Source: Chloroflexota bacterium (GTDB lineage Bacteria; Chloroflexota; Limnocylindria; Limnocylindrales; Limnocylindraceae). From it: 60,295 nucleotides of DNA. The notes under the pieces are model-generated. The model was not told the origin of the DNA. It ran no database searches and saw only the letters and a list, made by a program, of their open reading frames with translations. This document shows positions 7,544 to 60,295 of the stretch, piece after piece. Made by a program: the position numbers and the translations under genes. Every line of letters begins with the position of its first letter. The first letter of the stretch is position 1. The DNA lies in contig JAPLHR010000020.1 of NCBI GenBank assembly GCA_026389535.1, positions 1 through 60,295 on the forward strand, in the 5' to 3' direction.

Positions 7544-8541
7544 ATATGGGGACTGGCGCGTCAAAGATCGGCTATGCCGCAATGCTCGAGCAGTTCGGCC
7601 CAACCGAGGTGGTCGACTACTCCGTAGCCGCCGAGCAGGCAGGCTTCAGCGGCGTGATGGCCGCCGATCACTTCCAGCCATGGGTCCCCGAGCAGGGCTC
7701 CGCACCATTTGTGTGGAACGTGATGACACTGCTTGCTGAACGAACCAAGGGCGATGTTGGCCCCGGCGTCACCTGCCCAGGCTGGCGCATGCATCCGGCA
7801 ACGGTCGCGCAGGCTTCGGCAACACTCGAAGCGATGTATCCGGGTCGCCACTGGCTCGGCCTCGGCTCAGGCGAAGCGCTGAACGAGCATGTCGTTGGTG
7901 GCTACTGGCCAGAGGTGGGTGAGCGCATCGCTCGAATGTTTGAGGCGATCGAAATCATCCGCAAACTCTTCACCGGCAAAGAGGTGAAACACGCCGGTCG
8001 TTGGTATCAGCTCGAGAGCACACGGCTCTGGACGCTCCCCCCTACCCCACCACCAATCTACGTCGCGACAGCTGGCCCCATCACCGCCAAGAAGACGGGC
8101 GAACTCTGTGACGGCATCATCACCGTCGGCGCCGCCGACGAGAAGATCCAGACGGTTTTCGACAAGTTCGCCGAAGGGGCGCGCGCGGCGGGAAAGAACC
8201 CCGACACGATGCCGAAGATCCTGCAGCTCCACCTCTCATGGGCGCCGACCGATGAGGAGGCGCTCGCCAACGCGATGCGGGAGTGGCCGAACGGCGGCAT
8301 GAAGTTCCCGAAGCAGGATATTCGCAACCCTGCGGACTTCCAGCAGATGGCGAAGCTCGTGCGGCCAGAAGACTTCGCTGGGCGCATGGTGATCTCGAGC
8401 GACCTCGAGACGCACCGCAAGACGATTCAGCGCTACCTCGACATGGGATTCGACAAGATCTACCTGCATAACGTCGGTCGGAATCAGACCGAGTGGGCCG
8501 CCGCCTTCGGGCGCGAGGTGCTCCCCGCACTGAAGGCGTGA
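7540..8541 (+). CDS. fgd: F420-dependent glucose-6-phosphate dehydrogenase
   Basis: GYAAMLEQFGP...AADHFQPW...FVWNVM...GLGSGEALNEHV...YWP is the characteristic Fgd sequence. It has a 4-nt overlap with the upstream gene. Confidence 0.85.
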   Translation: MNMGTGASKIGYAAMLEQFGPTEVVDYSVAAEQAGFSGVMAADHFQPWVPEQGSAPFVWNVMTLLAERTKGDVGPGVTCPGWRMHPATVAQASATLEAMYPGRHWLGLGSGEALNEHVVGGYWPEVGERIARMFEAIEIIRKLFTGKEVKHAGRWYQLESTRLWTLPPTPPPIYVATAGPITAKKTGELCDGIITVGAADEKIQTVFDKFAEGARAAGKNPDTMPKILQLHLSWAPTDEEALANAMREWPNGGMKFPKQDIRNPADFQQMAKLVRPEDFAGRMVISSDLETHRKTIQRYLDMGFDKIYLHNVGRNQTEWAAAFGREVLPALKA

Positions 8542-9485
8542 GCCCGCGCGTCGCACTCCTCGCGGGCGGCGTCGGCGGTGCAAAGCTCGCCCACGGGTTG
8601 CGTGCCGCACTCCCGGCTGGCGACCTCTCGATCATCGCGAACCCGGGCGACGACTTTGAGTTGCATGGACTCACGATCTGCCCCGACCACGACACCCTGC
8701 TCTATACCCTCGCCGACCTTGGTGACCGCGAGCGCGGCTGGGGCCTCGCGGGAGAAACCTGGAACGCCCTTGAGCAGTTCGGCAAGATCGGCGCACCCGA
8801 CTGGTTCCGGCTTGGCGATCGCGACCTTGCACTGCACATTCATCGCACCGCACAGCTGCGCACTGGCGGACGACTCACCGAGGTGAACCGCGAGATTCAG
8901 CGTAGGCTCGGACTCAGTGAAGCGCCCATCCTGATGGCGACCGACGACCCACTCCGCACGCGACTGCGCACGGAGAGCGGCTGGATGGAGTTCCAGCCGT
9001 GGTTCGTTGGCGCACAGGCGAAACCTGAGGTACTTGAAGTTGCCTTCGACGGCGCCGACGCGGCGCGCCCAACTGCCGAGACGCTCGATGCCCTCGCCAC
9101 CGCAGAGCGCATCGTCATCGCGCCATCCAACCCGTTGATCTCGATTGGCCCGATTCTCGCTATCCCTGGCATTCGCGACGCAATCGCTGCGGCACGTGCC
9201 CGTGGCGCACTCGTCGTTGGTGTCTCGCCAATTGTTGGCGGGAAGGCGCTGAAGGGGCCGGCCGATCGCATGCTTGCCGCCGCAGGACTCGACGTCTCGC
9301 CGGCGGGTGTTGCCAAGCACCTGACGGGGCTGATGGATGCGTTCCTTGTTGAAACGTCGGACCTGACCCCTGCCCTTGCCGCCGCGCTCACACCACACGT
9401 TCGCAAGAGCGTGGCTGCGCCGATCGTTATGGGTGATGATGCTGCGCGCCTCGCCGTGGCGCGCGCCGTTCTCGCCGTCTCGTGA
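8538..9485 (+). CDS. cofD: 2-phospho-L-lactate (or EPPG) transferase CofD/FbiA
   Basis: VALLAGGVGGAKLAHGL...LTICPDHDTLLYTLA is present. The GTG at 8538 forms a GTGA overlap with the fgd stop; the track ORF starts at 8493 inside fgd. Confidence 0.85.
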   Translation: MSPRVALLAGGVGGAKLAHGLRAALPAGDLSIIANPGDDFELHGLTICPDHDTLLYTLADLGDRERGWGLAGETWNALEQFGKIGAPDWFRLGDRDLALHIHRTAQLRTGGRLTEVNREIQRRLGLSEAPILMATDDPLRTRLRTESGWMEFQPWFVGAQAKPEVLEVAFDGADAARPTAETLDALATAERIVIAPSNPLISIGPILAIPGIRDAIAAARARGALVVGVSPIVGGKALKGPADRMLAAAGLDVSPAGVAKHLTGLMDAFLVETSDLTPALAAALTPHVRKSVAAPIVMGDDAARLAVARAVLAVS

Positions 9486-14618: not shown

Positions 14619-14960
14619 ATGCAGGAACCAGCACAGGGAGCACCCGTCGCGATTCGCATTCTCCGCGAGCAGCAACGCCTTGAACTGGATTGGCGCGATG
14701 GCCATCAAAGCGTCTATGAGGCGATTCCGCTCCGATGGCTCTGTCCCTGTGCGTACTGTCGTGGTGAGGCTGGCCTCCCCGGCTGGCTCGACGCCAACCC
14801 AACCCTCAGCCCAAGTCAAACGAAGCTTGAGGGGGGCGAAATGGTTGGTAGCTATGCGCTCTGTCTCTTCTGGGGCGACGGGCATCGCACCGGTTACTAC
14901 ACCTGGTCGCTGCTGCGGCAGCGCTGCTCGTGCACGAGTTGCATGAGTGCCCCGCGATGA
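14619..14960 (+). CDS. DUF971 (gamma-butyrobetaine hydroxylase N-terminal-like) zinc-binding small protein
   Basis: LELDWRDGHQSVY...LRWLCPCAYCRGE...LFWGDGHRTGYYTW matches the DUF971 pattern. It has an ATGA overlap with ppk1. Confidence 0.6.
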   Translation: MQEPAQGAPVAIRILREQQRLELDWRDGHQSVYEAIPLRWLCPCAYCRGEAGLPGWLDANPTLSPSQTKLEGGEMVGSYALCLFWGDGHRTGYYTWSLLRQRCSCTSCMSAPR

Positions 14961-16996
14961 CGCTTGGCGTCAGTCGCGAGCTCTCACTTCTCGCCTTCAA
15001 CGCTCGAGTCTTAAGCGAGGCCTCGAACAAGAAGAGACCGCTCCTCGATCGATTCCGATTCCTCGGAATCGTCGCATCAAACATTGATGAATTCTATGGC
15101 GTACGCGTTGCCGGTATCCAAGACCAGCAGGCTGCTGGCGTACGCACCCCTGGGCCTGACGGGCGCACCCCTGACGTGCAGCTCGCGCTGATTCGCGAAG
15201 CGACCAGTCTGCTGACCGAATCCGCACAGGGGAGTTGGGGTTCACTCATTGAAGAGCTGCACAGTGCAGGGTTACCACTCCGAACGTGGGGCGACCTCGA
15301 TGCCGCCGAGCAATCAATCCTTACAGAACGTTTTACGCGCGAGATCTTCCCCGTGCTCACCCCCCTTACTGTTGACGCTGGCCAACCGTTCCCGCTGATT
15401 AGCTCCCTCAGCCTCTCGATCGCCATACGGCTCCGAGCAGAAGGGGGCCAGGAGAACGAACTTGCGCGAGTCAAAGTGCCGACAATCCTCGGTCGCATCG
15501 TGCAATTCGGCAACGGTGACTGGATCCTACTTGAAGATCTCATCTTGGCCCACGTCGACCTCCTCTTCCCTGGGAGGGAGATCGTTGATGCGCATCTGTT
15601 CCGCGTTACGCGCGATGCCGATCTCGACACTGTCGAGGAGGAGGCGGACGACCTTTTGGAGGCGATCGAGGAGGGGCTCCGCCAGCGCCGGTTCGGTAGC
15701 GTTGTGCGCCTTGAGGCCCGCGCCGATATGCCGGACGATCTACTCAAGATGCTCATGATGGGGCTTGAGATCAGCCAGAGCGAGGTGCAGGTTGCTGAGG
15801 GGCTCCTTGATCTCACCGTGGCGCTGCAGGTGGCGAACCTTCCCCGCCCTGAGCTTCGGGCACCACGCTGGCAACCGGTCACGCCAGCGCGCATCGCGGC
15901 AAGCGCCTCGACCGATTCGTCCAGCGGCGACATGTTCACGGTGATCTCTGAGGGAGACCTTCTGGTGCACCACCCGTACGACAGCTTCGAGGCGAGTGTC
16001 GACCAGCTCTTCGCCCAAGCTGCTGATGACCCTGATGTTCTCTCCATTCGCTCCACCCTCTACCGCACGGGGGCCACCTCGAGCATCCCTGCACACCTGA
16101 TTCGTGCGGCCCATGCCGGCAAGGAGGTCGTTGTTCTTGTTGAGGTGAAGGCTCGCTTCGATGAGGCGGCCAACATCGAGTGGGCGCGACGACTGGAAGA
16201 GGCGGGGGCACACGTGGTCTACGGGGTGATGGGACTCAAGACGCACTGCAAGGCGACGCTGATCGCTCGGCGAGAGGGCTCCTCTGTCCGCCGCTATGTG
16301 CACCTCTCCACGGGGAACTACAACCCGAAGACGGCGCGCGGATATACCGATCTCGGCCTCTTCACTACGAACGAATTGATTGCGAACGATGTGGGGGTGC
16401 TCTTTAACTTCCTTACCGGGGGCACGCGCGCCTCGACGTACAGCCGAATCCTGGTCGCGCCCGACCATCTGCGCGGCGAGATCAAGGAGCGCATCGAGCG
16501 ACTCGCAGAGCAGGCACGAGTTGGCGCGGCAACCGCGATCACGATCAAGGTCAACGCCCTGATCGACCCTGAGATGATTCAGGTCCTCGACCGAGCCGCC
16601 GAGGCGGGGGTCTCCATCGATCTCATCGTTCGTGGCATGTGCGGTCTACTGCCGGACCCGGCGCGACATGCCACGCGCCTGCGAATCCGCTCAGTTATCG
16701 GCGACTACCTTGAGCACAGCCGCATCTATCGCTTTGCAGGACCCGAAGGGGTTGAGCTCTTCGCCGGTAGTGCGGATCTGATGGAGCGCAACCTTGACCG
16801 ACGCGTGGAGGTGCTCTTCCCCCTAGATGAGGGTGAGGTGCGTCGCAAGGTAGACGAGATCCTCGCCGCGCTGCTCGCCGACACCTCGAACGCCTGGGAG
16901 TTGCAGCCAGACGGGGCCTGGGAGCGTCTCGCAGACACGGGCATCTCGTCGTTTGAGACCTTGCGACAGGTGGCACTCGCCGCATCTCAGGCATAA
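14957..16996 (+). CDS. ppk: Polyphosphate kinase 1
   Basis: RELSLLAFNARVL...FLGIVASNIDEFYGVRV is present, with two PLD-like C-terminal domains (KTHCKATLI, YLEHSRIY). The start is at the ATG overlapping the DUF971 stop. Confidence 0.9.
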   Translation: MTLGVSRELSLLAFNARVLSEASNKKRPLLDRFRFLGIVASNIDEFYGVRVAGIQDQQAAGVRTPGPDGRTPDVQLALIREATSLLTESAQGSWGSLIEELHSAGLPLRTWGDLDAAEQSILTERFTREIFPVLTPLTVDAGQPFPLISSLSLSIAIRLRAEGGQENELARVKVPTILGRIVQFGNGDWILLEDLILAHVDLLFPGREIVDAHLFRVTRDADLDTVEEEADDLLEAIEEGLRQRRFGSVVRLEARADMPDDLLKMLMMGLEISQSEVQVAEGLLDLTVALQVANLPRPELRAPRWQPVTPARIAASASTDSSSGDMFTVISEGDLLVHHPYDSFEASVDQLFAQAADDPDVLSIRSTLYRTGATSSIPAHLIRAAHAGKEVVVLVEVKARFDEAANIEWARRLEEAGAHVVYGVMGLKTHCKATLIARREGSSVRRYVHLSTGNYNPKTARGYTDLGLFTTNELIANDVGVLFNFLTGGTRASTYSRILVAPDHLRGEIKERIERLAEQARVGAATAITIKVNALIDPEMIQVLDRAAEAGVSIDLIVRGMCGLLPDPARHATRLRIRSVIGDYLEHSRIYRFAGPEGVELFAGSADLMERNLDRRVEVLFPLDEGEVRRKVDEILAALLADTSNAWELQPDGAWERLADTGISSFETLRQVALAASQA

Positions 16997-17003: not shown

Positions 17004-17633
17004 ATGGAGCGCGAGTTGAAATTTCTCCTCGAGCACGCACACGCTCCCGCGCTTCCTAGCGGCTACCACGTGGCAGAGCCTCAGCCTACGCTTCACCTTC
17101 TCGATGAGTACCTGGATTATCGCGGCCAAATCCTCGCCGCTGGCTGGCGACTACGTCGCCGCCGATCCGATGGTGAGGGGCTCCGGTACACGCTGAAGTC
17201 CGAGCAACGTGGCGACCCATCATCTCCGCTGCGTGAACGCATAGAGATTGAGCGCGCGCCAGAGCGTGATGAGCAGATCCCGTCAGAGATTGTGGCTGCA
17301 CTCTTGGCGGCCGGGGCTGACACGGTGCACGTGCTCGATCGCCTGCAGCCATACCTAACCCTGCGCCAGGAGCGTCACCCGGCAACGCTCTCAACAAGCG
17401 AAGGGGATATCGCACTAATGAGCGTCGACGAAGTGCGCGCGACGGGATCGACAGTCGAAGGGGAGCGCCGCTGGACGGAGCTTGAAATTGAGTTTTTCGC
17501 CACCGTTTCAGCCGAGGCTCGTGATCGCGCAGCCGTCGAGCTCTCCGCCTGGCTTGCAACGCAACCAGGGGTAACGCCTGGTGGTGAGTCAAAGGTCGCC
17601 CGAGCCGCGCGGCTCCTCTCGATCTCGATCTAG
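17004..17633 (+). CDS. CYTH (triphosphate tunnel metalloenzyme) domain protein
   Basis: The N-terminal MERELKFLL carries the ExExK signature of CYTH/TTM enzymes. I chose the ATG at 17004 rather than the track start at 16953, which lies inside ppk. Confidence 0.7.
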   Translation: MERELKFLLEHAHAPALPSGYHVAEPQPTLHLLDEYLDYRGQILAAGWRLRRRRSDGEGLRYTLKSEQRGDPSSPLRERIEIERAPERDEQIPSEIVAALLAAGADTVHVLDRLQPYLTLRQERHPATLSTSEGDIALMSVDEVRATGSTVEGERRWTELEIEFFATVSAEARDRAAVELSAWLATQPGVTPGGESKVARAARLLSISI

Positions 17634-18691
17634 CGCGAGGAGCTAGCCCGAGTCTCCATCACGAGGGTTGGGAGGGCCTCGCGCCACCCGTGACCCGCGC
17701 GAGCCACCGCAACGACCAGGCCCTCACGAATCCCACCGCGATCCACAGTGACCTGGCGCGCCGTCGTTCGCTGGAGCAGTGCCTCAACGATCGCAATGCC
17801 AGCAGGGAGTAGTCGCGCGCGGCGTTGCGAGATTGCAAAGCGCTCTGCCACCTCTTTTGCCGTGAGCGCAACGAGTCGCTCCCCCATCGCTGCAAGATCT
17901 TCGCGCTCAATCGTGCGACTGATGAGTGTCGCTGGAACGAGTTTGAGCAGTCGTGTCGCAGTCCCGCCCACCAGGATCAGCCGGTGCACATCAGCAACGG
18001 TAAGGTCGGCAAGTGCGATCTGGGCGTGTCGGCGCAGCTCCTGCCATTCACGCGGTCGTGGTGGGTCTTGATACGAGACACGCGCCAGAAGGCGCGCCGA
18101 TCCGATGGAGACGCCAATGGCACGCGGCATCTCGCCAGGGTGAAGTTCAACCGCTTCGGTTGACCCGCCGCCAATGTCCACGACAAGCTGCGGTACGGAA
18201 TGATCATGGCCATGGTGAAGACCGAGCACCGTCAGGAGGCCCTCCTCCTCATGGGTCAGGACGATCGGCGCATTTATTTTTGGCGTTCGCAAGGCGCGCA
18301 GCACACTCTCCTGATCGCGCGCTCGACGGAACGGTTCCGTAGCAACGACAAAGAGCTCATCAGCGCCCAAGACGCTGGCCCTCGTCCGGAAGGCGGCAAG
18401 CGCATCGCTGATTGCGGTCGTGGCCTTGCGCCCAATGGTGCGGTCCTGTTCAACCAACCGCCCAAGCTCGATGGGCATCGACTCATCCGCGATCACCTCT
18501 TGGCGCACCCCGTCGGAGACGGCCACATACAGGTGCGTTGAGTTGGAGCCGATATCGACCACGGCGCAGACCCGCGGGATGCCCGCCTGGGAGCTCCCCA
18601 CCCGGCTGCGGCGCGGCTTCGGGGTTGCGGGGGCGGTGGCGAGAGACGGTCTCGCCGCGTGAACACTGCGTAAACGCTTACCTGCCACCAT
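17630..18691 (-). CDS. ppx: Ppx/GppA-family exopolyphosphatase
   Basis: AVVDIGSNSTHLYV, VVDIGGGSTE and LILVGGTA show the ASKHA-fold phosphatase motifs. Confidence 0.8.
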   Translation of the reverse strand: MVAGKRLRSVHAARPSLATAPATPKPRRSRVGSSQAGIPRVCAVVDIGSNSTHLYVAVSDGVRQEVIADESMPIELGRLVEQDRTIGRKATTAISDALAAFRTRASVLGADELFVVATEPFRRARDQESVLRALRTPKINAPIVLTHEEEGLLTVLGLHHGHDHSVPQLVVDIGGGSTEAVELHPGEMPRAIGVSIGSARLLARVSYQDPPRPREWQELRRHAQIALADLTVADVHRLILVGGTATRLLKLVPATLISRTIEREDLAAMGERLVALTAKEVAERFAISQRRARLLPAGIAIVEALLQRTTARQVTVDRGGIREGLVVAVARAGHGWREALPTLVMETRASSSR

Positions 18692-54339: not shown

Positions 54340-54414
54340 TGGCTGGCGCGCTAGGATTCGAACCTAGGATCCCCTGCTCCAGAGGCAGGTGCCTTACCGC
54401 TTGGCCACGCGCCA
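54340..54414 (-). tRNA. tRNA-Gln (anticodon CUG), CCA encoded
   Basis: I folded the cloverleaf by hand. The acceptor is UGGCGCG/CGCGCCA, the anticodon stem is CCUGC/GCAGG with loop CUCUGGA, and the T arm is CUAGG-UUCGAAU-CCUAG. The discriminator is G followed by CCA. Total length is 75 nt. Confidence 0.85.
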
Positions 54415-54530: not shown

Positions 54531-56408
54531 GTGGTTGACCCCGCCCTCCACGGCCAGCTGCGGCTGGTTCTCAACCTTCTCGATACCCGTGTCGGCAGTC
54601 TGCTCATTGGCGGACGCCTCGCGCGATTCGGCACGCTGAAGGCGACGCAGCGCGACGAGTTCTTGCGCCGCTGGGTGCAACATCCCGTACCAATGCTCCG
54701 CAGCGGTGCCGCCGTCTTCCGCAAACTTCTCTCGTTCATCGCCTACTCGGATGCCGACGAGCCTGCCGATGCGCTGGTGCGGACACGCCTCAGCGGCATC
54801 GGCTACAACCCAACACCGAACGTAGCCACGGCCAACGTCACAAAGATCACCGCCTTCGACCCGGGCCCCGCAGAACGAATTGCCGTCGATGTTTTGGTGA
54901 TCGGCTCGGGCGCCGGCGGTGGGAGCATTGCGCGCGACCTCTCCGCCGCTGGTCGCGAGGTGCTCGTCATTGAGGCGGGTGGCCTCTACACCGAAGAGAC
55001 CTTCCCAACGAAGGAGCGCGACGCCTACGAGCGCCTCTATCTCGACTCGGGCTTCACCGCCACCGCCGATGCCCATATCGCAATCCTTGCCGGCGGCACC
55101 GTTGGTGGCGGCACCACCGTGAACTGGATGACTGCCATCCCAATCCCTGAGCCGGTGCGCGAGGAGTGGGAAGGGGAACACGGCGTTACCGGTGCCAGCG
55201 GGCGCGAGTTTGCAGGCGACCTGGACGCGGTGCTGAAAGAGATTGGTGCAAAGGACTCGCAGAATGTGCCGTTCAAAGATGAGGCGATCATTCGTGGCGC
55301 CGAGAAGCTCGGCTGGAGCAGCGAGCGCATCCAAATGAACCGCGCCGAGTGCAGCGACTGCGGAACCTGCCCGTTCGGCTGCAAGGTTGGATCGAAGCAA
55401 TCCTCTCTTCGACTGCATTTGGCACAGGCGGCCGCCAACGGCGCCCGTGTCTTGCCCGACTGCAAGGCAGAGCGATTGGTGTTCGAAAACGGCGCAGCGA
55501 CCGGTGCAATCACCACCCTCGGCACGCGCGCAGGGACACCTCGAACGCTAGAGATTGTCGCCAAGACAGTGGTGGTCTCCGGTGGCGCACTCCGCACGCC
55601 GGTTCTGCTGCAGCGCAGCGGCCTCACCCACCCTGCAATCGGCAAGAATCTTCGTCTCCATCCGGTCAGCCTTGTTGCTGGCGTGTTCGATGAGCCGGTC
55701 GAGATGTGGCGCGGCACGATGCAGGCGGCGAAGAGTTCCCGCTTTATTGACCCAGACGAAGAGCGCAATGGCTACATCATCGAGAGCGCTCCGGGTCACC
55801 CTGGCCTCCTCGCCCTCGGCATTCCGTGGACCGCTCGTGCAGAGCATGAGCGCCTCATGAAGTTAGGTCGCAACATTGCCCCCTTCTTGGCCATCGTGAA
55901 AGACGATGCTGGCGGCACCGTAACGGCAAGCCGTGCCGGCTTTGCCGAGATCAACTACCGCACCACCCCACGAGATGAGCGTGGTCTGCGCCACGCGCTT
56001 CGCTCCATGTCGCGCATCGCTGAAGCGGCTGGGGCGAGCGAGATCATCGCCGCCGGTTCACCGCCAATGAGCTGGCGCCGCAGTGAGGGGACCGAGGCGC
56101 TCGAGGTTTACCTGCGCCGACTGCACCGCTTCGACTTCGCCCCAAATCGCGGCACCGTCTTCTCTGCACACCAGATGGGCACGGCACGGATGGGCTCCGA
56201 CGCGCGAGATCACGTATGTGACCCGTGGGGTCGTGTGCGCTCGACCGCACGGCCACGCGCCGGTGACGCGAATGCCGGGCTGATCAAGAACCTCTACATC
56301 GCCGACGGGTCGCTCTTCCCTACCGCACTCGGCGTCAATCCAATGGTCACGATCCTTGCTGTTGCGAAGCGGGTCTCGCGCGCGATCATCGCCGACACGC
56401 GCGCATAA
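54531..56408 (+). CDS. GMC-family FAD-dependent oxidoreductase (long-chain alcohol oxidase-like)
   Basis: VLVIGSGAGGGSIARDLSAAGREVLVIEAGG is the FAD Rossmann motif. The C-terminal GMC block is HQMGTARMG...NLYIADGSLFPTALGVNP. The GTG start is uncertain. Confidence 0.8.
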   Translation: MVDPALHGQLRLVLNLLDTRVGSLLIGGRLARFGTLKATQRDEFLRRWVQHPVPMLRSGAAVFRKLLSFIAYSDADEPADALVRTRLSGIGYNPTPNVATANVTKITAFDPGPAERIAVDVLVIGSGAGGGSIARDLSAAGREVLVIEAGGLYTEETFPTKERDAYERLYLDSGFTATADAHIAILAGGTVGGGTTVNWMTAIPIPEPVREEWEGEHGVTGASGREFAGDLDAVLKEIGAKDSQNVPFKDEAIIRGAEKLGWSSERIQMNRAECSDCGTCPFGCKVGSKQSSLRLHLAQAAANGARVLPDCKAERLVFENGAATGAITTLGTRAGTPRTLEIVAKTVVVSGGALRTPVLLQRSGLTHPAIGKNLRLHPVSLVAGVFDEPVEMWRGTMQAAKSSRFIDPDEERNGYIIESAPGHPGLLALGIPWTARAEHERLMKLGRNIAPFLAIVKDDAGGTVTASRAGFAEINYRTTPRDERGLRHALRSMSRIAEAAGASEIIAAGSPPMSWRRSEGTEALEVYLRRLHRFDFAPNRGTVFSAHQMGTARMGSDARDHVCDPWGRVRSTARPRAGDANAGLIKNLYIADGSLFPTALGVNPMVTILAVAKRVSRAIIADTRA

Positions 56409-56444: not shown

Positions 56445-57956
56445 CTAGGGTACTTTCACCGTTGGCTTGCTAAACCAGAGCAGAGACGAGGTAGGGATTG
56501 CGGCCGTAACCCGTACCCGAAGATAGGAGCCTCGATCGGCTACCTTAAGTGTGTAGAGTGATTTCGTTGCCCCGGTGATGATCGTGCACCTTGCTGGGAT
56601 TGTCGTAGATGCACTCTGCGTTGCGGTGCTACATCGGAACCACTGATACGAATACTTTGGTGTTGGCCCGTATGACCATGCGCCACTCGTCGCGGAGAGC
56701 ACCTGTCCAACCGCTGTAGTTCCTGAAATCGTTGGAGCCGTCACCCGCGTTAGCTGCGTGAGCCAGAGATTCACCTTGCCGGGTCGCGCCAGAATGAAGT
56801 CGCTTGCCGCAACCTGCGCAGTCTTCGAAGCAGACGGGGAAGTTTCGTCTTTGGTATCACTCGCAATCTTGGGGGCGAGGGCGGTGTGAAGCGTAGCCGC
56901 CGTTGAGGCGAGGCCCAGTCTGCTCGCGCTATCTCGGACATCCCGAAGTGCCTGTACATATAGGGCTCGGCATGTACTTACTGCGAGGCACTGTGTGAAG
57001 AGCAGACCGCCGATCGGTTGTCCGAAACTGTAGGGTGGCCGCTTCTCCACGCCACCCCCAAAAATTTGATCGACCCCCCACGGCAATATCTGAAATCGTC
57101 CGTTGCTATCGCTGTGCAGGTAGTAGTTGCTGATTGACGCCCCTGTATAGCCATCCCAGTTGCCAATGTATCGATCGACTGCCCAATATCGTGTCATCTG
57201 CTGCAGATCCGCTACCGCGGTCACGCGCGCAAACCAGCTCGACACAGGCGCTTGTGATGCGGCGATCAACTCTTGAAGATCCGCACGATTGATGGCTGAG
57301 CCCACATCAACCTGGTAGTGCGCATCGTTCGCGTTCAACGGATTCCCCTCCGACCCAAGTCTCCCTTCGTAGAGGTGGGTTGTGCCGCCACCGCTGCTCC
57401 GCTTCTCTAGGGCAATCTTGTCGATCGACTCAACATTGAGATAGAGGCCATACGGCGCCCCGTTGATCCAGACCTCGGCATAGCCAGTTCGCGGCGCTGC
57501 GATGCCCATCTCTCGGAAAAGGGTGTATCCAATCGCCTCATTGACCTTTGAGGGATCCTGGATCATGTTATTGAGCGTCATTCGCTTGATCCCAAATGCC
57601 CGCTGCAGCTCGTTCGGAAACTCCAAGCGGAGTGCGGCCTTCTGGGGGAGCGATCTGTACGAGCCAACACCCTTCAGTCGCATTTTGACGTCCCACGCCC
57701 CGAACCCAGAGGTGCCGCCGTGCACCGTACTGCCCATCGTCAATTTGAACGTAGCGTCGACGTAGCCCTCAACGCCAATGGTGCTCAAGTCTGCGCCTGT
57801 ATTGAGATCGATCCGTACGATTCGCGAGGTTTGATACAGGGTCGCGGCGGGATCGCCCGTGGCTGGCGTAAGTGCCACCGCTGAGCCTGGGGCGAGCGAG
57901 CCGAGGAGCAGTGCGAGTAGGGCGAGTGTGCTGATGCGCCCGATGCAGTTCGTCAT
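56445..57956 (-). CDS. Secreted CotH-family kinase-fold protein with a C-terminal Ig-like repeat
   Basis: The signal peptide is MTNCIGRISTLALLALLLGSLAPGSAVA. CotH blocks are KRMTLNNMIQDPSKVNEAIGYTLFREMGIAAPRTGYAEVWINGAPYGLYLNVESID, RYIGNWDGY and ILPWGVDQIFGG. The C-terminal motif is YSYQWFRC...ITGATKSLYTLKVADRGSYLRVRVTA. Confidence 0.8.
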   Translation of the reverse strand: MTNCIGRISTLALLALLLGSLAPGSAVALTPATGDPAATLYQTSRIVRIDLNTGADLSTIGVEGYVDATFKLTMGSTVHGGTSGFGAWDVKMRLKGVGSYRSLPQKAALRLEFPNELQRAFGIKRMTLNNMIQDPSKVNEAIGYTLFREMGIAAPRTGYAEVWINGAPYGLYLNVESIDKIALEKRSSGGGTTHLYEGRLGSEGNPLNANDAHYQVDVGSAINRADLQELIAASQAPVSSWFARVTAVADLQQMTRYWAVDRYIGNWDGYTGASISNYYLHSDSNGRFQILPWGVDQIFGGGVEKRPPYSFGQPIGGLLFTQCLAVSTCRALYVQALRDVRDSASRLGLASTAATLHTALAPKIASDTKDETSPSASKTAQVAASDFILARPGKVNLWLTQLTRVTAPTISGTTAVGQVLSATSGAWSYGPTPKYSYQWFRCSTATQSASTTIPARCTIITGATKSLYTLKVADRGSYLRVRVTAAIPTSSLLWFSKPTVKVP

Positions 57957-58735
57957 GCTGAGGTTGCGGTTCGCGCGACGCGGTCAATCCAGGGTGATTT
58001 CAGCGCTCGAGTCCAGCGATTCGACGGTAGTGTTGGGTCGATAGCGGCGAGGCTTGTGCCGAATTTGGAGAGCTTGATTGGACGGAAGCCTATCCTCCAA
58101 AGTGCACGATCGGCCACGGTAGGTGCCAACCGAGACTTTGATTCGATAATGGCGAACTCATTCAGGCTGACCTGCTCCCCCGCCGGCGTGGTTGCTGAGA
58201 AGTCGGTATCGATCGTCAGCCGTGAGTCACCGGGCAGCAGCAGCGTGGAACGCTGGTAAATCGTCGTGAGTGTTGGCGCTAGAACTGATTCTCTCCCTGC
58301 CCCAAGGACCTCTGCGATGAACTCTAGGGCGGAGTCGTTGAGCTGACCACTCGAGTCTGCTGGATATTCCAATCGGCTCTTCGTCGTTCGGCCACGGGAA
58401 CCGCGCAGCTTCACCTCGAGCATGCAATCTCCAGAATTGACATACGTTCGCGTACGAACCTTGAACGCGTGACGACGTCGTCGCGCGGACGCTAGATAGG
58501 ATTGCCCAGTAGGCGTATCGAAATAGACTGATTCGTACCTGAATGAGCGCTCGCCGTTAATCTGGAGCGCACGTGCGTCACCAGAGATCGCCGCCACAAG
58601 CGACGCTGCAACGTTTAGGGGAACTATGTATTTGCGCTCCCGTCTTGAGAGAAGCGCCGCATCGCTCTGGAGCCGGCTGAGTTGAACGGAGGGGAGTGCT
58701 GCGATCGCCGCATCAACCGCGGCCTGCTCGGTCAA
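57953..58735 (-). CDS. VTC-domain (polyphosphate polymerase-like, CYTH-related tunnel fold) protein
   Basis: RRERKYIVP, FRYESVYFDT, FKVRTRTY, MLEVKLRG and FAIIESK are alternating basic/acidic beta-strand motifs typical of VTC/TTM tunnels. It has ATGA-type overlaps with both neighbours. Confidence 0.72.
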   Translation of the reverse strand: MTEQAAVDAAIAALPSVQLSRLQSDAALLSRRERKYIVPLNVAASLVAAISGDARALQINGERSFRYESVYFDTPTGQSYLASARRRRHAFKVRTRTYVNSGDCMLEVKLRGSRGRTTKSRLEYPADSSGQLNDSALEFIAEVLGAGRESVLAPTLTTIYQRSTLLLPGDSRLTIDTDFSATTPAGEQVSLNEFAIIESKSRLAPTVADRALWRIGFRPIKLSKFGTSLAAIDPTLPSNRWTRALKSPWIDRVARTATSA

Positions 58736-59250
58736 GCGCCGTGCTCCCGCCCCGTGCTGGATCGTTGTTCGTAGCGAACCTCCACCATCGTCGAATCCTC
58801 AATAAGGTCAGTGCGCCGTACGCGAATTTGATGCACGGTTGCTCCGAGTAGCTCCTCAAGGCGAGTTCGAAGCAACGGCTCACTGGTGATTGCCTCATCA
58901 AGCGTAATGATCTGCACGCGATATCGTCCAAACAAACGAGGGTGGTCCCCGATCGTCAGGGCGACCAGAACCAGCCCCATGAGCACGGCACTGATCCAGA
59001 TTGGGGTGATTGGAAGAGCTCCGATTAGGCCCAGCGTCATGGCAGCAAGGTAGTAGGCAATCTCTTGCTGATCGAGCTCGGCCGAGCGCAGTCGTAACAG
59101 CGAGAGGACAGCAAAGAGGCCAAAGCCAATGCTGATCGTCGTCTCCTCTGCGACAAGGGCACTCGTCACCGCGATGAGGCCCATGTTGATCATGAGGTAG
59201 GCGACAACAAGATCGCGGCGGCGATGGCGCGGGAAATACAAAACAAACAC
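58732..59250 (-). CDS. DUF4956-like four-helix membrane protein
   Basis: LYFPRHRRRDLVVAYLMIN, GFGLFAVLSLLRLRSAELDQQEIAYYL, two more TM helices and a soluble C-terminal tail are present. It starts at a GTG. The N-terminus may be short relative to the family. Confidence 0.6.
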   Translation of the reverse strand: MFVLYFPRHRRRDLVVAYLMINMGLIAVTSALVAEETTISIGFGLFAVLSLLRLRSAELDQQEIAYYLAAMTLGLIGALPITPIWISAVLMGLVLVALTIGDHPRLFGRYRVQIITLDEAITSEPLLRTRLEELLGATVHQIRVRRTDLIEDSTMVEVRYEQRSSTGREHGA

Positions 59251-59403
59251 AAGAATTGAGATGCGGTTAAAACATCAATTCGGGTAACGCTGATTTCTGC
59301 TGCAGTTGCATGCGCTCTGCTCTTTGGAGCACCCCCCGTTGCCGCATACACCCCCCCGTCAAACGATGATGCGGCTTGGCTCTACAAGCCATCAACAGTA
59401 GTC

Positions 59404-60295
59404 ATGGTCGACCTGCAGCTTCCCCAATCGTCCATTGATGCGCTCTGGGCAGATGCCCGAACCTATGTGCCTGGCACCTTCAGGCTCACGTCCGGAAGTA
59501 GGAGCTTCGGCCCATGGGCGGTTGAGGTGCGACTGAAGGGGCGCTGGGGATCTGGCTATGGCCTTGATGGCAAGGCAGCGTTCAAGATCAAATTTCCCAA
59601 CTCACGACAACGGGTCGGCGGAATGAAGAAGCTCACGCTCAACAACATGGTGCAAGACGGGTCATACATCACTGAGACAATCTCGTACGAACTCTTCCGG
59701 GGAATGGGCGTCCCTGCGCCGAGAACGGGGTATGCCGTTGTCACCCTGAATGGTCTGGACTACGGCTTGCACCTCAATGTTGAAACGCCAGACGACCGCA
59801 TGTTCAGCAGATGGTTCCCGAACGAAGAAACGAAACATCTCTACGAGGGTAGTTACGGCTGTTGCTACAACTGGCAAGATCCATACAGCGACGAGCACTT
59901 TGACGTTGACGAGGGCGACCGAGCAGATAGAAGTGATCTCGCTGCACTTCTCAACACGCTCAGTTTAGAAGGGCTCGCCTGGCGCCAAGCGGTGGAGAAG
60001 ATCGCAGACCTTCGCGCACTCACCGCGATGTGGGCTGTCGAGCTGTACGTTGGCCATTGGGATGGATATGCGTGGACGGTAAACAACTACTTCATTCACA
60101 ACACCAAACGCAATCGCATCACGATGCACCCATGGGGCTTAGACCAAACGCTAGGGGCGAGCGGGCCCCTCCCCTTTTCCGGGCCAGGCTGGGGGAATCT
60201 GCTTGACCGGTGCCTCACCGACGTGGTCTGCAGTGGCTACTTCTCAGAGGCCGTATTGGCGACGCGCGATAAAGCACGTGCGCTCGCCTTAGACG
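59404..60295 (+). CDS. Second CotH-family protein (partial, continues beyond the window)
   Basis: This gene is not in the supplied ORF track because there is no stop inside the window. My translation shows MKKLTLNNMVQDGSYITETISYELFRGMGVPAPRTGYAVVTLNGLDYGLHLNVETPDD, YVGHWDGYAW and MHPWGLDQTLG. The first in-frame ATG is at 59404. The frame is open from 59260 and encodes a signal-peptide-like segment upstream of that ATG. Confidence 0.75.
   Translation, partial: MVDLQLPQSSIDALWADARTYVPGTFRLTSGSRSFGPWAVEVRLKGRWGSGYGLDGKAAFKIKFPNSRQRVGGMKKLTLNNMVQDGSYITETISYELFRGMGVPAPRTGYAVVTLNGLDYGLHLNVETPDDRMFSRWFPNEETKHLYEGSYGCCYNWQDPYSDEHFDVDEGDRADRSDLAALLNTLSLEGLAWRQAVEKIADLRALTAMWAVELYVGHWDGYAWTVNNYFIHNTKRNRITMHPWGLDQTLGASGPLPFSGPGWGNLLDRCLTDVVCSGYFSEAVLATRDKARALALD

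Follow-up and report, generated by a model that had tools for sequence, protein, structure and literature searches.

Genes for a DUF4956 membrane protein and for a VTC-domain protein resembling the catalytic domain of Vtc4, the yeast polyphosphate (polyP) polymerase, form an essentially obligate, translationally coupled pair. In a 60,295-nucleotide stretch of DNA from a Chloroflexota bacterium of the family Limnocylindraceae (assembly GCA_026389535.1, contig JAPLHR010000020.1, positions 1 to 60,295; hereafter the window), this pair is accompanied by two genes for secreted CotH kinase-like proteins. We propose, at slightly less than an even chance, that the module is a widespread and self-contained bacterial unit in which a Vtc4-like enzyme works while docked on DUF4956, its product reaches the cell surface, and an exported partner acts there. 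The trio itself has been published before, as a set of genes of uncharacterised function; what is added here is a Chloroflexota variant that stands alone, independent of pel, and carries two CotH paralogues in a Candidatus Aquidulcis-like genome, the finding that the core pair is obligate and its third partner interchangeable, and the local loss of a control region. A previous sequence-only reading of the window had described the cluster and suggested that a VTC tunnel docked on DUF4956 might supply polyP to extracytoplasmic CotH kinases; its observation was essentially right and its interpretation is a reasonable hypothesis.

The VTC-domain protein matches PF09359 over residues 31–231 (85.1 bits against a cut-off of 23), and this is its sole Pfam domain: Pfam detects no SPX domain and no C-terminal membrane domain in its 260 residues, and its AlphaFold2 model has no transmembrane segment. 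The TTG start of the gene is supported by its orthologues, which at 63–91% identity are 259–260 residues long and mostly cover the full query. The model (predicted local distance difference test score (pLDDT) 90.1, predicted template modelling score 0.87) has the eight-stranded triphosphate-tunnel fold. Searched with Foldseek, this predicted structure has the Vtc4 entries 3g3r, 3g3q and 8i6v as its top matches (best 3g3r_B, E 2e-12, template modelling score 0.61); Vtc4, Vtc3 and Vtc2 chains occupy ranks 1–13, followed by ygiF and other CYTH/TTM proteins. The similarity in sequence is remote, with ~17% identity to Vtc chains in the fold search and an hhalign E of 1.7e-5, and a search of PDB sequences with the VTC profile gave only weak Vtc2/Vtc3 matches (E 0.15).

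A preprint describing the yeast VTC complex by cryo-electron microscopy reports that mutating K200, R264, R266, K281, Y359, R361, E426, S457 or K458 lowers polyP, and that among these residues only K458 differs in the inactive Vtc2 and Vtc3, where it is Ile/Leu. We aligned the Vtc4 sequence 188–481, a 100% match to 8i6v_E, with hhalign and with hmmsearch using a 144-sequence profile; the hhalign register was one position off at R94/R96 and was settled by the hmmsearch alignment. All nine residues are identical in the window protein, as K35, R94, R96, K109, Y160, R162, E198, S223 and K224 in the same order, with K224 the counterpart of Vtc4 K458. The sequence-only reading had asked whether the tunnel Lys, Arg and Glu residues are kept, and they are. 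The nine residues vary little or not at all among 24 close homologues and 143 distant ones; across the 144 sequences of the profile (50%-identity clusters) the only departures are at K35 (143/144) and Y160 (Tyr in 127, Phe in 16). The family is large, with 3566 cluster representatives at E <= 1e-10. The window protein shares with the eukaryotic VTC complex the tunnel fold, the nine polyP residues including the Lys458 equivalent, and genetic coupling to a membrane protein. In contrast to the eukaryotic enzyme, which carries an SPX domain and a C-terminal three-helix transmembrane domain, it consists of the tunnel domain alone, and its membrane partner is DUF4956, which has no structural match to Vtc1.

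A scan of genomes returned more than 584 related stretches, and the best 80 of these, mostly from Actinomycetota, were analysed with locally built profiles. In 79 of the 80 loci the gene immediately upstream of VTC, on its own strand, is DUF4956; the remaining locus begins inside the VTC gene at a contig end. An exported third partner is encoded within 3 kb in 63 of the 79 loci, namely CotH in 28 and the beta-helix protein Cthe_2159 in 36, with one locus encoding both; where present, CotH is either divergent upstream or directly downstream. The synteny therefore extends well beyond the source genome. The two nearest loci in the genome collection, L001 from a Candidatus Aquidulcis metagenome-assembled genome (MAG; Chloroflexota, class Limnocylindria; VTC 88% identical) and L002 from a Chloroflexota MAG (86%), have exactly the four-gene layout of the window. 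Views of called genes show both Cthe_2159–DUF4956–VTC and DUF4956–VTC–Cthe_2159 orders, and four-nucleotide stop/start overlaps occur in the window and in other phyla. RefSeq-annotated megaplasmids add CotH–VTC–DUF4956 in Deinococcus and DUF4956–VTC–'esterase-like activity of phytase' in Aminobacter. We found no report of pairing with Cthe_2159 or phytase-like third genes in the literature searched. On the other hand, no VTC or DUF4956 gene lies within 8 kb of the genes for two further CotH proteins of this subfamily. Because CotH also occurs alone and the third gene varies, the invariant unit is the DUF4956–VTC pair, with CotH as one of several interchangeable exported partners. The DUF4956–VTC–Cthe_2159 operons of Actinomycetota and the DUF4956–VTC–esterase operon of Aminobacter share with the window this core pair and its stop/start coupling to an exported third protein, but in them that protein is a lipoprotein of the beta-helix, carbohydrate-binding type or a phytase-like esterase rather than CotH.

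Individual loci show this arrangement in more variety. At L084:5685-8816, L085:7381-10495 and L086:5439-7751 the third gene coupled to the pair encodes a different exported protein; the DUF4956–VTC junction is a four-nucleotide overlap in L084 and L085, as is the VTC–Cthe_2159 junction in L085. The actinobacterial partners carry lipoboxes, which makes them lipoproteins. Two gene calls join VTC to its partner, P0411 (VTC+CotH, 709 aa) and P0451 (VTC+Cthe_2159, 817 aa), and contain internal lipoprotein signal peptides (LVAGC and LGGC); they are probably read-through of overlapping stop and start codons and were not used as evidence of fusion. An apparent DUF4956–VTC fusion in L010 (7110-10771) was likewise rejected, since the locus comes from a long-read MAG assembly in which probable frameshifts spread DUF4956 and CotH over several frames. 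The flanks of the pair in Actinomycetota include a GT2-GtrA glycosyltransferase in 15 loci, an NAGPA phosphodiester glycosidase in 15 and a HAMP-HisKA sensor kinase in 26 (examples at L057:7909-9177, L015:7133-9310, L027:7279-8256 and L030:1993-3765). These neighbours hint at a link to phosphodiester-containing envelope glycopolymers.

Within the window the genes of the three families adjoin one another and are read in the same direction (Table 1). The open reading frame (ORF) list and direct reading of the junctions confirm the chain of three minus-strand genes described earlier: at 57953-57956 the VTC stop and the CotH1 ATG share an ATGA, read as GCA-TGA/ATG-ACG, and at 58732-58735 the DUF4956 stop and the VTC TTG start share a TTGA, read as GCT-TGA/TTG-ACC. 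Searches with the CotH, VTC and DUF4956 hidden Markov models upheld the proposed families, with every Pfam match of the four module genes above its gathering cut-off, and showed that the divergent ORF leaving the window is indeed a second CotH. NCBIfam gave no named family for any module protein, PADLOC found no defence-system match, and promoter and terminator scans gave results at chance level.

Table 1. Features of the DUF4956–VTC–CotH module in the window.
Feature	Position	Strand	Description
CotH1	56445..57956	(-)	503 aa; secreted, CotH-family kinase-like; Pfam CotH E 4.8e-38
VTC-domain protein	57953..58735	(-)	260 aa; soluble triphosphate-tunnel enzyme, like the yeast Vtc4 catalytic domain; Pfam VTC E 7.1e-24
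DUF4956 membrane protein, 5'-truncated copy	58732..59250	(-)	172-aa ORF from an internal GTG; Pfam E 1.2e-50
Junction of the 82-bp deletion relative to orthologous loci	59263..59264	(.)	DNA alignments to L001 and L002
CotH2, divergent paralogue	59263..60295	(+)	5' end clipped, 3' end beyond the window; frame translation, Pfam CotH E 6.2e-33

The membrane protein was correctly placed in DUF4956 by the sequence-only reading (PF16316, 172 bits against a cut-off of 30.6), but its description as a 172-residue, four-helix protein applies to a 5'-truncated copy. The window protein covers profile positions 10–169 only, whereas the full-length orthologue P0123 covers 1–169, and close orthologues are 188–202 residues long. 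The GTG at which the window ORF starts corresponds to Val17 of the 188-residue orthologues, so that orthologue residues 1–16 are absent. In the AlphaFold2 model of P0123 (188 aa, pLDDT 72), five predicted transmembrane helices are followed by a beta-alpha-beta-beta C-terminal domain with a weak resemblance to ACT domains; the window copy has lost most of the first helix and retains four helices and the C-terminal domain. Arg-rich cytoplasmic loops are conserved in the family.

CotH1 comprises an N-terminal signal peptide (MTNCIGRISTLALLALLLGSLAPGSAVA/LT, judged by eye), a CotH core at residues 93–376 and a C-terminal Ig-like domain at ~405–503. The CotH kinase-like core described earlier is confirmed, and the Ig-like tail is indicated by sub-threshold matches only, to SCAB-Ig (6.4e-5) and AIR9 A9 (2e-3), in the last 100 residues. 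The L001 orthologue of CotH1 also has 503 residues, and that of CotH2, at 7871-9397(-), has 508 with CotH and fn3 domains. CotH1 matches the structure of Bacillus cereus CotH (5jd9) at E 5.4e-12, and in the motifs NWDG...SNYY...PWGVDQ of CotH1 and HWDG...NNYF...PWGLDQ of CotH2 the parts up to SNYY and NNYF align with NFDGFVHNY of 5jd9. In Bacillus subtilis (Bs) CotH, Asp228 presumably lies in NYDGF and Asp251 and Asp253 in PWDYD, an assignment that agrees with the published names of the mutants. Both copies keep the equivalents of Asp228 and of Asn233, and both have Gly at the position of Asp251 and Asp at +2, the Asp253 equivalent, in place of PWDYD. D228Q and D251A are cited as inactive mutants of B. 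subtilis CotH (PMC7821199). The Gly with Asp at +2 is found in 86 of ~90 homologues, so PWGxDQ marks a subfamily rather than decay; VTC-linked CotH proteins of actinobacteria instead keep Asp251 and have Asn at +2. Thus the window proteins share with the spore-coat CotH of Bacillus (5jd9) the kinase-like core, the catalytic Asp equivalent to Bs Asp228 and the Asn that in Bacillus stands five residues further on, but differ in being secreted via a signal peptide, in their additional Ig-like or fn3 domain, in the Gly at Asp251, and in having four extra residues inserted between that Asp228 equivalent and the Asn.

In the mechanism that we propose, the tunnel enzyme would polymerise phosphate from a nucleoside triphosphate in the manner of Vtc4 while docked on DUF4956, and DUF4956 would pass the polyanion on to the cytoplasmic membrane or through it. 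The co-encoded exported protein would bind, use or process the product at the cell surface; this partner would be the two secreted CotH paralogues here, and the Cthe_2159 beta-helix lipoprotein or the phytase-like esterase elsewhere. Because the Vtc4 active site is complete, polyP synthesis is the most economical guess; for export the only hints are the exported partners and the Arg-rich cytoplasmic loops of DUF4956. The idea that polyP might serve CotH as a phosphodonor is pure inference.

Several observations weigh against this proposal. The literature searched yielded no biochemical work on any bacterial VTC-domain protein and no demonstration that one makes polyP. The organism also has the conventional polyP pathway, since the canonical genes reported earlier in the same window are indeed present ~40 kb from the module: ppk1 at 14930-16996 (+), with four PP_kinase domains, and ppx (Ppx/GppA) at 17630-18691 (-). 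In the tunnel enzyme, a conserved Asp or Glu at position 33, two positions ahead of K35, stands where Vtc4 has Thr. The suggestion that DUF4956 acts like the VTC channel was not borne out, as a fold search with the moderate-confidence model (pLDDT 72) gave no significant PDB match and no likeness to the Vtc1 transmembrane domain. Among the exported partners, both CotH copies lack the metal-binding Asp at the Asp251 position and CotH of their subfamily occurs apart from the pair, and in 16 of the 79 loci no gene for CotH or for Cthe_2159 lies within 3 kb of the pair; the ORFs beside the pair in those 16 loci are mostly unannotatable or spurious in high-GC (guanine plus cytosine) DNA. Finally, the copy in the window is probably silenced or impaired, and recently so.

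This last point comes from alignment of the window to L001 and L002, against both of which it has an 82-bp gap with CGC microhomology at its ends. The missing sequence comprises the first two codons of CotH2 (ATG-AAA), the whole 40-bp divergent intergenic region and DUF4956 codons 1–12. As a result, CotH2 is left without a canonical start and DUF4956 is restricted to the internal GTG; the CotH2 frame has a stop just upstream and no in-frame ATG, GTG or TTG ahead of its signal peptide. Inside the deleted 40-bp region, L001 (9406-9425) carries two TAGGAT boxes and the inverted repeat CCTAGC-N8-GCTAGG; these may represent -10 elements and an operator serving the two divergent genes.

A reading that is quite possible, if still somewhat doubtful, is that the cluster in the source genome was inactivated recently and survives as a remnant that no longer functions; this explanation concerns this copy and not the intact module. 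Besides the deletion itself, the missing CotH2 start and the loss of most of the first transmembrane helix of DUF4956, exact look-ups of the window VTC and CotH1 proteins returned no identical database protein. However, the rest of the module is intact, with full-length reading frames equal in length to those of L001, and pairwise ratios of nonsynonymous to synonymous substitution (dN/dS) against L001 and L002 are 0.04–0.22 for all four genes, as among the intact copies themselves, which indicates purifying selection until recently. Translation of a four-helix DUF4956 could still begin at the internal GTG, and the Streptococcus intermedius homologue is described with four transmembrane segments (PMC12345266). 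Promoters could also sit in neighbouring coding regions, the intact intergenic region being just 40 bp. With the other frames intact and these dN/dS values, the deletion is either very recent or an artefact of assembly or strain variation.

For the intact module, one alternative gives the tunnel enzyme a hydrolytic or signalling role in place of polymerisation, for example as a tripolyphosphatase, polyphosphatase, NTPase or cyclase. DUF4956 would then be an MgtC-like membrane regulator with an ACT-type ligand-binding domain, and the pair would sense or tune phosphate or cation status, with its exported neighbours merely co-regulated. Most characterised bacterial tunnel enzymes are hydrolytic, ygiF and the CYTH proteins take the Foldseek ranks just below the Vtc chains, and the conserved D/E33 ahead of K35 resembles ExExK, the motif of hydrolytic tunnel enzymes. 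PolyP metabolism is already served by PPK1 and PPX, and on the regulator side there are the weak ACT likeness of the DUF4956 C-terminal domain and the description of the S. intermedius homologue as MgtC-like plus ACT (PMC12345266). The best structural matches, however, are Vtc4 and then Vtc3 and Vtc2 chains, and K458, the residue that separates active Vtc4 from its inactive paralogues, is invariant here. The membrane protein likewise gave no MgtC match: Pfam at E <= 0.01 returned DUF4956 alone, and NCBIfam one sub-threshold MgtU match. Nor does co-regulation alone account for a third gene whose product is almost always exported and which, in the loci examined, is stop/start-coupled to the pair. 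On balance we consider this alternative unlikely.

A similarly low likelihood attaches to the view that the module is a unit for modification and regulation of the envelope or an exopolysaccharide, in which a secreted glycan or a matrix protein is the target phosphorylated by CotH, or CotH controls its synthase, and the DUF4956–VTC pair plays a supporting role; this overlaps with our proposal and differs mainly in the target. It draws on the known occurrences of the trio. The genes cotH, 'poly-phosphate polymerase' and DUF4956 (with DUF4832) have been described as an accessory set adjoining pelDEADAFG in clostridia and streptococci, and in variant form in bifidobacteria (Whitfield et al. 2020, bioRxiv 10.1101/768473 = PMC7112168). 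In S. intermedius, deletion of SIR_1592, a four-transmembrane protein that we take to be the DUF4956 homologue, or of SIR_1594 (CotH-FN3) lowers Pel and aggregation (PMC12345266). The statement of the sequence-only reading that it knew of no functional characterisation of the trio was therefore too strong. The NELoc-2 locus of Clostridium perfringens contains VTC-domain genes, CotH and small membrane proteins labelled 'tubulin/FtsZ', which we suspect to be DUF4956, and these genes adjoin one for a chitin-synthase-like glycosyltransferase. The GT2-GtrA and NAGPA genes often found beside the actinobacterial pair, and the annotation of Cthe_2159 as a carbohydrate-binding beta-helix, point in the same direction.

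In the window and its orthologous locus, however, no glycosyltransferase or pel gene adjoins the module, nor is one present in the Deinococcus and Aminobacter loci. We found no pel operon and no DUF4832 hydrolase within ~8 kb on either side, the far side being seen via L001; the flanking genes encode a GMC oxidoreductase and an alpha/beta hydrolase in the window, and an M48 peptidase, LemA, saccharopine dehydrogenase and glycogen phosphorylase on the far side in L001. SIR_1593 is also among the S. intermedius deletion strains, the Pel effect given above being that of SIR_1592 and SIR_1594 (PMC12345266). The window module shares with the pel accessory set the three contiguous, co-oriented families and a secreted CotH with a C-terminal Ig/FN3-type domain. 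It differs in belonging to Chloroflexota and in having two CotH paralogues of the PWGxDQ subfamily. The S. intermedius authors state that the trio was not found outside the Pel locus (PMC12345266), whereas we find it outside that locus in 28 of 79 loci and on the Deinococcus megaplasmid.

The most specific version of the polyP idea, a second bacterial pathway apart from PPK in which the Vtc4-like polymerase on DUF4956 threads polyP outward for CotH to use as phosphodonor or scaffold where ATP is scarce, or for Cthe_2159 or phytase-like proteins to bind or trim, is improbable in our judgement.

The base composition of the module bears on its history. Its GC content of 57.6%, against 64.1 +/- 1.0% for the remainder of the window, lies below that of every equal-size window elsewhere in the stretch (minimum 61.0%), and GC at third codon positions is 0.60–0.65 in the module against 0.72–0.74 in flanking genes. 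The GC dip noted by the sequence-only reading is thus real and its three hand counts are exact, but the dip is modest and the 78% line taken as typical of the core is an outlier. L001 and L002 carry the low-GC module at the identical place beside the GMC oxidoreductase gene (58.2% against 63–65% in the flanks), so its acquisition is not peculiar to the source genome. Among these three related genomes, synonymous divergence (dS) is 0.10–0.58 for the module genes and 0.57–0.68 for the GMC gene; between the window and L001 the values are 0.10–0.41 and 0.57 for the adjacent GMC gene (54531-56408). This lower synonymous divergence fits a module that was swapped among related lineages after its flanks had diverged. 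Within the module, dS between the window and L001 is ~0.10–0.12 for both CotH genes and ~0.40 for VTC and DUF4956, which suggests mosaic recombination. The idea of foreign origin thus receives modest support, in that composition and dS fit some horizontal history of a compositionally distinct module. The sole RNA gene that Rfam detects in the window, a tRNA-Gln (CTG) at 54340-54414 (-), lies ~2 kb from the module; as the core-like GMC oxidoreductase gene separates the two, it is not an obvious integration site.

The value of the window itself is lowered by the published association of the three families and by the lost control region of the local copy. The comparative picture nevertheless offers a cleaner, pel-independent system in which to test the polyP idea. 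If the DUF4956–VTC pair does make and export polyP, it would represent a new bacterial route to this polymer and a prokaryotic counterpart of the eukaryotic VTC machine, and it could account both for the working of secreted CotH kinases in an extracellular setting and for the influence of these genes on Pel-dependent aggregation of streptococci.

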